Positions 4,622 to 17,140 are shown, numbered from the stretch's first letter. The stretch: DNA of 64,000 bases from Escherichia coli (GCF_016903815.1 NZ_CP069973.1), one strand, 5' to 3'. Program-made: numbers and translations. The notes: generated by a model from the letters alone, not told the origin.

Positions 4622-5923
4622 ATGAAACGGACAATGCTCTATCTTTCTCTGCTGGCTGTCAGCTGTAGCGTCAGCGCCGCAAAATACCCTGTTCTGACAG
4701 AAAGTTCGCCAGAGAAAGCAGGGTTCAACGTCGAACGGCTTAACCAGATGGATCGCTGGATAAGCCAGCAGGTGGATGCCGGTTATCCCGGCGTAAACCT
4801 GCTGATTATTAAAGATAATCAGATTGTGTATCGCAAAGCCTGGGGAGCGGCGAAAAAGTACGATGGCAGCGTATTGATGGAACAGCCTGTCAAAGCCACC
4901 ACCGGGACGCTGTATGACCTGGCTTCCAATACCAAGATGTACGCCACTAACTTTGCTCTGCAAAAGCTAATGAGCGAAGGCAAGCTGCATCCTGACGATC
5001 GGATTGCGAAATATATTCCGGGATTTGCCGATAGTCCAAATGACACCATCAAAGGCAAAAACACGCTGCGGATTTCTGACCTGCTGCATCACAGCGGCGG
5101 TTTCCCGGCGGACCCACAATATCCGAATAAAGCGGTCGCGGGCGCGTTATATTCCCAGGATAAAGGCCAGACGCTGGAGATGATCAAGCGCACGCCGCTG
5201 GAGTATCAGCCCGGCAGCAAGCATATCTACAGCGATGTCGATTATATGCTGCTTGGATTTATCGTCGAGTCGGTTACCGGTCAGCCACTTGACCGCTATG
5301 TTGAAGAGTCGATTTATCGCCCGCTCGGCCTGACGCATACGGTGTTTAATCCGCTACTGAAAGGCTTTAAACCGCAACAAATTGCCGCCACGGAACTCAA
5401 CGGCAATACCCGCGATGGCGTGATCCATTTCCCGGATATCCGCACCTCCACTCTCTGGGGTCAGGTGCACGATGAAAAAGCCTTTTATTCGATGGGCGGC
5501 GTTTCCGGGCATGCAGGGTTGTTTTCCAATACCGGCGATATTGCGGTGTTAATGCAAACGATGCTGAACGGCGGCGGCTATGGCGATGTGCAGTTGTTCA
5601 ATGCAGAAACGGTGAAGATGTTCACCACCAGCTCTAAGGAAGATGCCACTTTTGGCCTTGGCTGGCGCGTGAATGGTAATGCCACCATGACGCCGACGTT
5701 TGGCACGCTGGCAAGCCCGCAAACCTACGGTCACACTGGCTGGACCGGGACGGTGACCGTTATCGATCCGGTGAATCATATGGCGATTGTGATGTTAAGC
5801 AACAAGCCACATTCGCCAGTTGCCGATCCACAAAAAAATCCCAATATGTTCGAAAGCGGTCAGCTACCGATTGCAACTTATGGTTGGGTAGTTGATCAGG
5901 TGTATGCGGCGTTAAAGCAGTAA
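4622..5923 (+). CDS. yfeW: Penicillin-binding protein 4B / beta-lactamase-fold protein YfeW
   Basis: ORF track 4535..5923; start trimmed to ATG 4622 (MKRTMLYLSLLAVSCSVSA signal peptide); SxxK motif (SNTK) present. Confidence 0.88.
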   Translation: MKRTMLYLSLLAVSCSVSAAKYPVLTESSPEKAGFNVERLNQMDRWISQQVDAGYPGVNLLIIKDNQIVYRKAWGAAKKYDGSVLMEQPVKATTGTLYDLASNTKMYATNFALQKLMSEGKLHPDDRIAKYIPGFADSPNDTIKGKNTLRISDLLHHSGGFPADPQYPNKAVAGALYSQDKGQTLEMIKRTPLEYQPGSKHIYSDVDYMLLGFIVESVTGQPLDRYVEESIYRPLGLTHTVFNPLLKGFKPQQIAATELNGNTRDGVIHFPDIRTSTLWGQVHDEKAFYSMGGVSGHAGLFSNTGDIAVLMQTMLNGGGYGDVQLFNAETVKMFTTSSKEDATFGLGWRVNGNATMTPTFGTLASPQTYGHTGWTGTVTVIDPVNHMAIVMLSNKPHSPVADPQKNPNMFESGQLPIATYGWVVDQVYAALKQ

Positions 5924-5933
5924 TAATAAATAT

Positions 5934-5957
5934 CCTCCGGCATAGCCGGAGGTTTTT
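5934..5957 (+). terminator. Putative rho-independent terminator after yfeW (could alternatively lie inside the right end of the IS200-like element)
   Basis: Stem cctccggc / gccggagg with 3-nt loop followed by TTTTT, 10 nt after yfeW stop. Confidence 0.55.
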
Positions 5958-6033
5958 CAAATGCGCCTATAAGGCTCTCTTACCAGCCGCGCCCTAACAG
6001 GCGCACACGATCTGACATTTGCATCCAACTTCG

Positions 6034-6492
6034 TTACTTACGGCCCGTAAACGGGCTGCCCGGATAGGGAATCGATAACTGCTCTCCCATTTTATCCTCT
6101 TCAAGCTGGTGCTTTATGTAATCCTGTATCTTCGCCGTGTTCTTACCCACCGTATCGACGTAGTACCCTCTGCACCAGAACTCCCTGTTCCTGTATTTGA
6201 ATTTCAAATCACCAAACTGCTCGTAAAGCATCAGACTGCTTTTCCCTTTCAGATATCCCATAAAGCCGGATACGCTCATTTTGGGCGGGATCTCCACAAG
6301 CATATGGATATGATCTGCACAGCATTCAGCTTCCAGAATCCGTACACTTTTCCACTCACACAGCTTTCTCAAAATACTGCCTATTGCTCTACGCTTCTCT
6401 CTGTAGAACACCTGTCTTCGGTATTTTGGCGCAAAAACTATGTGATATTTACAGTTCCATCGGGTGTGCGCTAAGCTCTTTTCGTTCCCCAT
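6034..6492 (-). CDS. tnpA: IS200-type transposase TnpA (Y1 HUH family, 152 aa)
   Basis: ORF track 6034..6543; start trimmed to ATG 6490-6492 (MGNEKSLAHTRWNCKYHIVFAPKYRR...); HUH motif HIHML and C-terminal YY; near-identical to recalled Salmonella IS200 TnpA. Confidence 0.9.
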   Translation of the reverse strand: MGNEKSLAHTRWNCKYHIVFAPKYRRQVFYREKRRAIGSILRKLCEWKSVRILEAECCADHIHMLVEIPPKMSVSGFMGYLKGKSSLMLYEQFGDLKFKYRNREFWCRGYYVDTVGKNTAKIQDYIKHQLEEDKMGEQLSIPYPGSPFTGRK

Positions 6493-6632
6493 TGGGACCC
6501 CCTTTTGATTTCTTGTTTGACACTTGCAGTTGCCAGACCGCAAGGTGTTTTAACAAATCAAAAGGGGTTTTAATAACTGGCTTAAAGCTGAAAGCTTTCC
6601 GGAACCCCCAGCCTAGCTGGGGGTTTTCTGTG

Positions 6633-6668
6633 CACAAAAAGGCCAGTCAGTTGTGATACTGGCTGGCC
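6633..6668 (-). terminator. Putative rho-independent terminator after yfeX
   Basis: Minus-strand hairpin ggccagccagt...actgactggcc followed by TTTTTGTG, about 25 nt after yfeX stop. Confidence 0.6.
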
Positions 6669-6691
6669 TTAAATCATCGAATCAGAAACGA

Positions 6692-7675
<984 letters not shown>

Positions 7676-14363: not shown

Positions 14364-15725
14364 TCAGAAGAACAGTGACGGATCGCCCGCCCATTTGGTC
14401 AGGCGACCGTTTGCCATAATGCCCATGCTTTCCAGCCAGCGTTCAAACTCCGGTGACGGGCGCAGGTTGAGTAACTGACGCACAGTGGCAGTGTCGTGGA
14501 ATGCTGTGGTCTGATAGTTGAGCATGATGTCATCGCCCAGCGGCATCCCCATGATGTAGTTGCAGCCTGCGGTGGCGAGCAGGATCATGAGGTTTTCGTT
14601 GAGGTTCTGGTCAGCGTCAGCGTGGTTGGTGTAGCAGCAGTCACAGCCCATAGAGATGCCGCTCAGCTTACCCATAAAGTGATCTTCTAAGCCCGCACGG
14701 ATAATCTGGCGGTCGTTGTAGAGATACTCCGGCCCAATAAAGCCGACCACGGTGTTGACGATAAACGGATCGTAATGACGCGCCAGCCCGTAGTTACGCG
14801 CTTCCATCGTCACCTGGTCTGCGCCGAAGTTAGCGCCAGCAGACAGCGCCGAACCTTGTCCGGTTTCGAAGTAGAGGCAGTTTTCCCCGGCGATACGATT
14901 GAACTCTGCGCCCACTGCGCGCGCTTCGTCGAGCATCGCCAGCTCCACGCCAAATTCTTTCAGCCCTTTTTCGCTGCCGCAGATACTCTGGAAAATCAGC
15001 CCGCCTGGTGCGCCACGACGGATCGCTTCAATCTGGGTGGTGACGTGCGCCAGCACGCAGCCCTGAGTTGGGATGTTGAATTTGTCGATCACGCCGTAGA
15101 TGGTGTCCAGCACGCGGCTTAAGTTTTCCACGTCGTCCGTCACCGGGTTGACGCCGATCACCGCATCGCCCACCCCGAAGGAAAGCCCTTCGTAGATTTG
15201 CGCAGCGATACTTTGCACGTCGTCACGGGTGTCATTTGGCTGCAAACGGGCGCTGAAGGTGCCCGGAATACCGATGGTGGTATTGGCCTTTTTGATTACC
15301 GGCATTTTCTTCGCGCCGTAGATCAGGTCCGCGTTGGAGCAAATCTTCGCCACCGCCGCGACCACTTCCGAGGTCAACCCTTTGCGGGTAAAGGCAATGT
15401 CGTCCACGCTGGTTTCATCGCTCAGCACATACTCACGCAGTTCGCTGATGCTCCAGTTTTTAATCTGGTTGTAGGCCGTTTCGTTAACATCGTCCTGAAT
15501 CAGCCGCGTCACACAGTCATCTTCATAGGCAATCACCGGATTATTGCGGATGTCCGCTACGGTCATTTCCGACAACACCTGCTTTGCCGCCACGCGCTCC
15601 TGTGAGCTTGCCGCTGCAACGCCCGCCAGCACATCCCCCGAACGCAGTTCGTTGGCTTTAGCCAGCACCTCTTTTACATCCTTAAACTGATATACATTGC
15701 CGAACAATGTGGTCTTTAGTTTCAT
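14364..15725 (-). CDS. eutB: Ethanolamine ammonia-lyase large subunit EutB (453 aa)
   Basis: ORF track 14364..15725; start 11 nt downstream of eutA stop. Confidence 0.95.
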   Translation of the reverse strand: MKLKTTLFGNVYQFKDVKEVLAKANELRSGDVLAGVAAASSQERVAAKQVLSEMTVADIRNNPVIAYEDDCVTRLIQDDVNETAYNQIKNWSISELREYVLSDETSVDDIAFTRKGLTSEVVAAVAKICSNADLIYGAKKMPVIKKANTTIGIPGTFSARLQPNDTRDDVQSIAAQIYEGLSFGVGDAVIGVNPVTDDVENLSRVLDTIYGVIDKFNIPTQGCVLAHVTTQIEAIRRGAPGGLIFQSICGSEKGLKEFGVELAMLDEARAVGAEFNRIAGENCLYFETGQGSALSAGANFGADQVTMEARNYGLARHYDPFIVNTVVGFIGPEYLYNDRQIIRAGLEDHFMGKLSGISMGCDCCYTNHADADQNLNENLMILLATAGCNYIMGMPLGDDIMLNYQTTAFHDTATVRQLLNLRPSPEFERWLESMGIMANGRLTKWAGDPSLFF

Positions 15726-15736
15726 AAGTCGTTCCC

Positions 15737-17140
15737 TCAGGAAGGAAATGCGAGTGATTTCACCGTCACCGGCACAACCGATCCGCCAAAAAGAGGCGTA
15801 CCAATGTCGATATAGTCCCCCGCGCGGACAATCACTTCGTCAATGACTGCCAACGGGAGTTGTTGTAGCTGTGGGCGCAACAACATGCCCAGAGCTTTAC
15901 CAAAGTCCTGCCCGGCCACCACCAGCAGGGGATGCGGATTCGGAAAACGCGCGACGAAATCGACCAGCGCGTTGATGACCGTCAGTACCGCGGCGTAACG
16001 CACAGGCAGCGAGGCGGGAAGCGCCAGCACGTACGCGTCAGAATTGGGATCAAGATCCAGCTGAATCAGCGCCTGTTGCCAGGCACTCACCAGATCCGTT
16101 TCATCAATTGGGATCGCCACCGGCAAATTGCGCAGCGGCAGTTGTACGCCCTCCAGCCAGATTGTGCTGCCAGAGAGCGAAAGGGTATGTGCACCCGCGC
16201 CAATCACCGTGGCGCGTACGGTTTGCGCCGGAAACTGCACGTTCATCTCACGCAGGCGCGGATGGTCATGCAGCGCCGTTGCCAGAAGCGGGCCAATATC
16301 GGCAAAACAGAACGGGTCGGCGGGCTGGTGGCGATAACATTCGCCCACGCCGCCAGAAAGCGTAATGATTTCGGGCGTAACACCTGCGGGCAGCAAACCG
16401 GTTTGCATCAATGCCTGCGCGAGCGGCGAGAGCGTTCCGTCAATCACTTCGACAATCAGCTCTGCCATCCGCCGGGTAACCTGCACCAGCTGCGCGCCGG
16501 TCAGCGAACGGGCGTCGGTGCCTGCGCCGAAGCACTCATCCACAATCATCTGCCCCGGTTTATGAGCGTAAACCACGCGCCCCTGGCTGTCGGTTTCCAG
16601 CAGGCGACCACCGACGTTGAGGCAGGCAGTGCCGCTGATTTTTCCGGCATCGAACAGGGCGTAGTTCGCGGTGCCACCGCCGATGTCGATATTCAGTACC
16701 CGACACAGCCGTTGTTCAGAAAGGGTTTGCGCCCCGGCACCGTGACCGGCGATCACGGATTCGAGATGCGGCCCGGCGCTGGCGACGACAAAATCGCCCA
16801 GCGACTGGGAGAGCGTCATCACCGCCGGGCGAGCGTTGCGGGTTTTCGCGCTTTCACCGGTGATGATGATGGCACCAGAATCAACGCTTTCCGGCGCAAT
16901 GCCCGCAGCCTGATATTGCTCGAGGATTAAGGTTTTCAGTTCCGCTTCTTTTAAACCACCCTGTTTATCGACAGGGGTAAAGAACACCGGGCTTTGCCAG
17001 CTAATTTCGCGTTTGATGAATTCGTAGCGCGGCACCTGCGACACCGCCGCACGGTTAACCAGCTCCAGGTGGGAGAAGATCACCTGGGTGGTGGTGGTGC
17101 CGATATCGATACCGACGCTCAGTAGCTGGCGAGTGTTCAC
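15737..17140 (-). CDS. eutA: Ethanolamine ammonia-lyase reactivase EutA (467 aa)
   Basis: ORF track 15737..17140; GTG start overlapping eutH stop (GTGA). Confidence 0.93.
   Translation of the reverse strand: MNTRQLLSVGIDIGTTTTQVIFSHLELVNRAAVSQVPRYEFIKREISWQSPVFFTPVDKQGGLKEAELKTLILEQYQAAGIAPESVDSGAIIITGESAKTRNARPAVMTLSQSLGDFVVASAGPHLESVIAGHGAGAQTLSEQRLCRVLNIDIGGGTANYALFDAGKISGTACLNVGGRLLETDSQGRVVYAHKPGQMIVDECFGAGTDARSLTGAQLVQVTRRMAELIVEVIDGTLSPLAQALMQTGLLPAGVTPEIITLSGGVGECYRHQPADPFCFADIGPLLATALHDHPRLREMNVQFPAQTVRATVIGAGAHTLSLSGSTIWLEGVQLPLRNLPVAIPIDETDLVSAWQQALIQLDLDPNSDAYVLALPASLPVRYAAVLTVINALVDFVARFPNPHPLLVVAGQDFGKALGMLLRPQLQQLPLAVIDEVIVRAGDYIDIGTPLFGGSVVPVTVKSLAFPS

Follow-up and report, generated by a model that had tools for sequence, protein, structure and literature searches.

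An IS200C insertion beside the yfeX terminator in a lineage of Escherichia coli, and the hairpin-plus-T-tract context of IS200-group insertion sites

IS200 of Salmonella enterica, the founder of its group, is a 707-710 bp insertion sequence with a single gene, tnpA, encoding a 152-aa Y1 HUH transposase with Y125 as the catalytic residue. The Y125F mutant of this transposase is catalytically dead (PMC4513863). Transposase is made in very small amounts, owing to a weak promoter near nt 40, a hairpin at the left end that acts as a terminator, a stem-loop that takes up the Shine-Dalgarno sequence and the antisense RNA art200 (PMC4513863). The left-end hairpin, at nt 12-34, is a bidirectional terminator that blocks impinging transcription; the Shine-Dalgarno stem-loop lies at nt 69-138; and art200 (also STnc490) is an RNA antisense to the tnpA 5'UTR, with a start at nt 153/154 and a length of about 90 nt (PMC4513863). 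The element has been described as almost dormant in the laboratory (PMC4513863; bioRxiv 10.1101/2024.06.26.600842). For the wider IS200/IS605 family, a peel-and-paste model of transposition has been derived from IS608 of Helicobacter pylori and ISDra2 of Deinococcus (PMC6006769, PMC5027513, PMC2806898). Both of these carry tnpB and have defined targets (TTAC, TTGAT). In an unrelated class of mobile DNA, the group IIC introns, landing occurs just downstream of a Rho-independent terminator's stem-loop, and also at attC sites (PMC7923331).

Here we describe an IS200-type element found in the window, by which we mean the whole 64,000-nt stretch of E. coli DNA that was analysed. The element lies between pbp4b (yfeW) and yfeX. 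It resembles Salmonella IS200 in its single tnpA gene, in the length, HUH motif and catalytic tyrosine of the transposase, and in matching the Rfam model RF01405, which Salmonella IS200 matches as well; the two structured landmarks of the left part occupy element nt 11-33 and nt 68-137, shifted by 1 nt relative to the Salmonella numbering. It differs in that RefSeq names the E. coli variant IS200C and in measuring 711 bp under the boundary convention used here, and in some E. coli lineages as many as 35 places in one genome are occupied by it, whereas IS200 is usually called dormant. With IS608 and ISDra2 it shares a homologous TnpA with aligned HUH and tyrosine residues, subterminal hairpins in the place of terminal inverted repeats, and an orientation consistent with insertion into the lagging-strand template; unlike them it has no tnpB, and its apparent target is a T-tract behind a hairpin. 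IS1541 of Yersinia pestis and Y. pseudotuberculosis is alike in its left-end hairpin sequence, its right-end hairpin (CCTCCGGCTATGCCGGAGGATATTTATT) and its placement after a hairpin and T-tract. The left-end tips of the two elements differ (GTGCCCAGAA in IS1541, GTGCACAGAA in IS200C), and head-to-tail tandems occur for IS1541 in Y. pestis while none were seen for IS200C. The likeness to group IIC introns is confined to target choice, as these are retroelements that use RNA-DNA pairing and reverse transcription.

Identity, ends and transposase of the element

The genes pbp4b and yfeX end at 5923 (+) and 6692 (-), respectively. Of the ORFs in the 768 bp that separate them one is a convincing gene, at 6034-6492 (-). 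The segment from 5925 to 6635 (-), 711 bp in length, is almost certainly an intact copy of IS200C (IS200 group, IS200/IS605 family) whose insertion into the short spacer between the convergent genes pbp4b and yfeX took place in the ancestry of a single E. coli lineage. As such it is an ordinary known element at a polymorphic site, and no new element type. Its limits were placed by comparison with empty sites and with eight independent copies. The empty alleles of strains APEC 102026 and PE15 read ...GCAGTAATAAAAAGGCCAG..., and the occupied allele of the window reads ...GCAGTAATAA|TAAATATCC...GTGCAC|AAAAAGGCCAG...; when occupied and empty alleles are set against each other (TAATAAAAAGG versus TAATAA[...]AAAAAGG), the net insertion is 711 bp. 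The active top strand of the element is the minus strand of the window, which puts the left end at 6635 and the right end at 5925. This boundary is ambiguous by 2 nt, with 5927-6637 fitting equally well, since the target and the end of the element are both TT; for the same reason, insertion without target duplication and insertion with a 2-bp TT duplication look alike at this net gain. No experimentally determined IS200C cleavage sites were found in the literature examined.

A 709-bp core, GTGCACAGAAAACCCCC...CCGGAGGATATTTA, was identical in all eight independent copies compared, and TT follows it in each of them. These copies lie at yfeX and nagE, at a lom gene in a prophage, at an ldr toxin gene, at plaP and ydcL, and on two plasmids, one of them phage-like. 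The end sequences (GTGCAC... and ...TATTTATT) form no inverted repeats, and a subterminal hairpin is present at each end. There is no tnpB; tnpA is the sole family-matching ORF in the 711 bp, the size of the IS200 group being about 0.7 kb. The segment thus behaves as an insertion sequence, in multiple copies with identical ends at different sites and with empty sites in relatives. The converse reading, in which an ancestral 711-bp segment was deleted in other strains, was rejected on the uniformity of the empty alleles and on the multi-copy nature and precise ends of the element. An IS200/IS605-family insertion sequence at 5926-6640 had been proposed from the window sequence by a model (the original prediction); the identity is borne out by Pfam, NCBIfam, Rfam and RefSeq, and the ends needed shifting by 1-5 bp, to 5925-6635.

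The tnpA gene (6034..6492, -) encodes 152 aa, as had been predicted. The protein matches Pfam Y1_Tnp (PF01797) with an E value of 3.8e-38 and 130.7 bits (cutoff 23), and the NCBIfam equivalog transpos_IS200 (NF033573) with 147.7 bits (cutoff 55). An identical protein, WP_000526135.1, is labelled by the RefSeq annotation (PGAP) as 'IS200/IS605-like element IS200C family transposase'. Relatives of solved structure are 2ec2, 2f4f and 2a6m (IS608 TnpA), with an E value of 3.9e-19 to 2a6m. In the alignment with IS608, residues H61/H63, Y125 and Q129 correspond to H64/H66, Y127 and Q131, so that the HUH motif is H61-I-H63 and Y125, aligned with IS608 Y127, is the catalytic nucleophile. The HIH motif (residues 61-63) named in the original prediction is therefore retained; the C-terminal YY that was listed beside it falls at residues 110-111, where IS608 has no tyrosine, and gives way to Y125. 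A longer reading of the gene from a TTG start (169 aa, 6034-6543) was rejected, as the ATG at 6492 follows a Shine-Dalgarno sequence and matches the RefSeq protein. Three further ORFs, at 6109-6474 (+, 121 aa), 6384-6656 (+, 90 aa) and 6449-6637 (-, 62 aa), were discarded as spurious, being unsupported and overlapping either tnpA or the structured leader.

Terminal structures, expression control and the yfeX terminator

The left-end subterminal hairpin occupies exactly 6603-6625 (-), with the sequence aacccccagc-cta-gctgggggtt, and folds as a perfect 10-bp stem with a 3-nt loop, at the position and in the form that had been predicted. By family analogy it would also be a binding site for TnpA. 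Between this hairpin and tnpA, the 5'UTR contains a second stem-loop at 6499..6568 (-), in which CCCCUUUUGAUUU is predicted to pair with AAAUCAAAAGGGG, burying the Shine-Dalgarno sequence AAGGGGGU. The minimum free energy of this fold is -42 kcal/mol (z = -4.8), and none of 200 shuffled sequences was as stable; together with the match to RF01405, this upholds the earlier proposal that the ribosome-binding site pairs with an upstream complement in this stem-loop. The RF01405 (STnc490) match is full-length, at 6502-6625 (-), with 146 bits and an E value of 1.4e-31 against a gathering score of 56. Although STnc490 is the name of an antisense RNA, the model matches the tnpA-sense strand and takes in the left-end hairpin; it may represent the 5'tnpA RNA in its sense direction, or its construction may have used the opposite strand. 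Other Rfam matches in the region were weak and were set aside as chance, namely Vax2os1_2 (15.6 bits, gathering score 55) and a partial match to STnc490 on the plus strand (19.8 bits).

A putative art200 was placed at 6483..6572 (+) by transferring the Salmonella coordinates with the 1-nt offset. A candidate promoter for it, TTTACA-17-TAAGCT, lies at 6449-6477, a site that was not called in a simple scan of 5850-6750 for the sigma-70 consensus, which found no site; the tnpA and art200 promoters are placed solely by transfer from the Salmonella data. By analogy with that element, transposase output of the copy at yfeX would be throttled by the same four devices.

At the other end of the element, the right-end subterminal hairpin (5934..5952, -) has an 8-bp stem with 7 G-C pairs and is present in every copy examined. 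On the top strand ATATTTATT comes next and forms the right terminus. In the plus-strand reading the same hairpin is followed by TTTTT and looks like a terminator, 11 nt past the pbp4b stop codon. As the hairpin and its TTTTT lie inside every copy, they belong to the right end of the element and not to a host terminator, and the hairpin directly past pbp4b should be annotated as part of the insertion sequence.

The host terminator at this locus is the intrinsic terminator of yfeX, at 6636..6670 (-), which consists of a hairpin at 6639-6670 and TTTTT at 6640-6636, as judged from folds of occupied and empty alleles and from alignments. This terminator is the target of the insertion, and it remains intact upstream of the left end of the element. 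That end directly abuts the T-tract, with the element and yfeX pointing the same way; the top-strand flank is AAGGCCAGCCAGTATCACAACTGACTGGCCTTTTT|GTGCAC..., with terminator hairpin and T-tract followed by the tip of the element. Host spacer outside the insertion amounts to 57 bp, close to the 60 bp or so estimated originally. The insertion had been predicted to lie in or next to the terminators of both yfeW and yfeX; this is correct for yfeX, and the hairpin after yfeW is the right end described above. We infer that yfeX keeps a hairpin and five T residues after the insertion, and that pbp4b, which formerly ran into the weak reverse face of the yfeX hairpin, now meets the right-end hairpin and TTTTT. 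In this arrangement tnpA would be shielded from read-through from both neighbours, and the insertion would be nearly harmless.

Distribution of the insertion and mobility of IS200C

IS200C was found in 3097 of 5426 complete E. coli genomes, with a median of 1 and a maximum of 35 places per genome; 1287 places were on plasmids. The exact junction between the left end and yfeX was present in 147 of the 5426 genomes (201 with a looser junction cutoff), always on the chromosome and always single, and about 97% of E. coli genomes have the yfeW-yfeX locus without an insertion sequence. Carriers of the yfeX insertion have from 1 to about 30 copies of IS200C, some strains having 18-31 places and some 1-3. 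Since carriers range from few to many copies, the insertion marks a lineage and no single strain. The original prediction had called it a strain marker; the junction is common to 147 genomes and not private to one strain. Carriers include multidrug-resistant clinical isolates with 20-30 IS200C copies. In K-12 (strain RP437) no insertion sequence was found at the yfeW-yfeX locus, in agreement with the original prediction; with the junction in 147 of 5426 genomes and K-12 empty, the segment is not ordinary sequence shared at this locus by all E. coli.

Alleles without IS200C have a spacer of 57 bp or, in K-12-type strains, of 240 bp. In the RP437 allele the yfeX terminator hairpin is duplicated, with two 30-nt copies that are 93% identical and 182 bp apart (833-862 and 1015-1044 of L004), and the segment enclosed by the duplicated hairpins contains a pair of REP-like palindromes, GCCTGATGCGCTACGCTTATCAGGCCTAC and GCCGGATAAGGCGTTCACGCCGCATCCGGC. 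The locus thus has three alleles: a short one, a BIME-bearing one and the one with IS200C. Strain HCP5S3_I2 has a different IS200/IS605-family tnpA (WP_000502112.1) between yfeX and yfeY, with its yfeW-yfeX spacer empty (L005, 1904-2362); neighbouring insertions of this type inflate the count of 'occupied' loci obtained with long queries (176).

A very close relative of the window source is strain 7/2 (NZ_CP023820.1, 2844121-2908120), a Swedish faecal isolate with 22 IS200C places, which differs from the window at 2 of 64,000 positions (8433 and 61886). No second IS200 copy was found in the 64-kb window, and no other mobile-element gene is annotated in this near-identical genome, in keeping with the claim that the element is the only mobile DNA of the window. 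The eutB and eutA genes are adjacent in the window (14364-17140), 11 bp apart; K-12 carries the CPZ-55 prophage between them, so the eut operon of the window is the uninterrupted form.

Copies of IS200C that are 100% identical were found on chromosomes, in a prophage region (by lom and tail-fibre genes) and on the 97-kb phage-like plasmid p50579417_1, and some genomes have 20-35 places. The identity of the copies and the high number of places suggest recent activity, or a burst, of IS200C in some E. coli lineages, which conflicts with the usual description of IS200 as dormant. It bears directly on a different view of the yfeX copy, namely that it is a fixed, immobile relic kept for host-regulating RNAs (the processed 5'tnpA RNA and antisense art200), a small-RNA locus instead of a transposon. 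Salmonella IS200 has indeed been called essentially immobile, with its 5'tnpA RNA domesticated (bioRxiv 10.1101/2024.06.26.600842; PMC5435999), the RNA-structure region of the yfeX-site copy is intact, and the insertion is stably inherited in 147 genomes. Yet the tnpA ORF, its catalytic residues and both ends are also intact, and the presence of 100% identical copies on plasmids and in prophages, with as many as 35 places in one genome, indicates recent transposition in E. coli lineages; we regard the relic as improbable. A domesticated host system of another kind, a REP-associated tyrosine transposase (RAYT/TnpA_REP) whose hairpins would be REP elements, was considered because of a weak match to NCBIfam REP_Tyr_transpos (E 8.5e-08) and of the hairpins on both sides of the gene. 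At 32.2 bits, that match falls far short of its cutoff of 80; the score for the IS200 equivalog is 147.7. RAYTs are typically single-copy (bioRxiv 10.1101/119735), whereas the unit at yfeX is multi-copy, with precise ends and known empty sites. Score cutoffs, copy number and empty sites together refute the RAYT/REPtron reading, to which we attach virtually no probability, and the segment is treated below as an insertion sequence.

Sequence context of insertion sites

By analogy with IS608 and ISDra2 (Barabas 2008; PMC5027513, PMC6006769), TnpA dimers would bind the subterminal hairpins of the top strand and excise this strand as a single-stranded circle. The circle would then be inserted into the lagging-strand template on the 3' side of a short target, which would not be duplicated. 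The GC skew of the plus strand of the window is -0.027, and in K-12, where it has the orientation found in the window, the locus maps to 2.549 Mb. On the established K-12 map we take this position to belong to the oriC-ter replichore that is replicated toward lower coordinates. GC skew and map position thus make the minus strand, which is the top strand of the element, the lagging-strand template, and the orientation at yfeX fits the family model.

A G+C-rich hairpin with a T-rich tail was found immediately 5' of the left end at all eight E. coli sites compared. The tail is a run of 5-7 T at seven of them, the exception being the second plasmid (L016), where TTCATT follows a 10-bp stem with one mismatch; at 7 of the 8 sites the hairpin comes after the 3' end of a gene in the same orientation. 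A scan for the left-end hairpin in one genome per species gave at least 120 loci (L017-L136), in Yersinia pestis (IS1541), Vibrio, Dickeya, Brenneria, Enterococcus, Ruminococcus, Mailhella/Desulfovibrio and others, and 118 distinct flanks were tested. Among the matches listed, a hairpin and T-rich tail ended at the left end in 100 of the 118 flanks, compared with 46 of 5000 random positions (about 1%), 201 of 5000 TTG positions and 9.7% of the ends of runs of four or more T. Most of the 18 listed sites that failed the hairpin rule have imperfect stems. In 90 of the 100 positive sites among these matches, 3-6 nt separate the end of the stem from the tip of the element. Across the matches listed, the last flank base was always T, with TT at about 115 of the 118 sites, and the order was constant: hairpin, T-tract, left end.

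The sequences point to the T-tract after a G+C-rich hairpin, as found in a Rho-independent terminator, as the apparent preferred target. We tentatively propose, as a possibility that is still some way from established, that IS200-group elements (IS200C, IS1541 and relatives in Firmicutes, Desulfovibrionaceae, Vibrio and others) actively choose such terminators. On a single-stranded lagging-strand template, the complex of transposase and element ends would recognise the G+C-rich hairpin with its T-tract and insert the element at a distance of 3-6 nt beyond the stem; the target would then mimic the element's own right end. By analogy with the guides of IS608, the A-rich tetranucleotides 5' of the hairpin feet (..AGAA|AACCCCC on the left and ..AAAA|CCTCCGG on the right) may read the T-tract. 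The competing account invokes selection only, with insertion at any T-rich site and survival of harmless copies just past terminators. In its favour, selection would remove copies that land in genes or promoters, the ends of T runs are already rich in terminator-like hairpins (the 9.7% given above), and a recent preprint that found terminator-context enrichment at the family level reads it as a context limiting transposase expression. Set against this are the tight register of stem and tip, the constant orientation with its invariable T, both among the matches listed, and the many other neutral positions in intergenic space; insertion beside the right-end hairpin of another copy, as seen for IS1541, also fits a hairpin and T-rich target. 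We consider selection alone less likely than not but a live alternative, and purifying selection against copies at other places may account for part of the terminator association.

Should active target choice prove right, it would provide a simple and testable rule for the landing sites of IS200-group elements and a reason for their being tolerated. A Y1 transposon would then follow a 'safe harbour' rule based on structure as well as sequence, and would have converged with group IIC introns on one solution; this would also explain how IS200 persists at high copy number with little harm. In the literature examined, terminator adjacency was not shown as a target-selection mechanism, and older papers on IS200 and IS1541 may describe a preference.

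Head-to-tail IS1541 tandems were observed in Y. pestis NCTC5923 (L103, about 330-370; also L104 and L106), in which one copy's right end, ...CCGGAGGATATTTATT, passes directly into GTGCCCAGAA, the left end of the next, so that the right-end hairpin and ATATTTATT directly abut the following copy. Such tandems are expected if the right-end hairpin with its T-rich tail serves as a target, or if circle junctions reintegrate. The listed matches include Vibrio ruber (L051-L062), Enterococcus (L069-L075) and Y. pestis (L102-L136) as examples, and among these matches elements of several phyla share all 20 of the specified left-end hairpin bases (AACCCCCAGC...GCTGGGGGTTC) without change. Many of the listed matches lie at contig ends, so these elements break assemblies.
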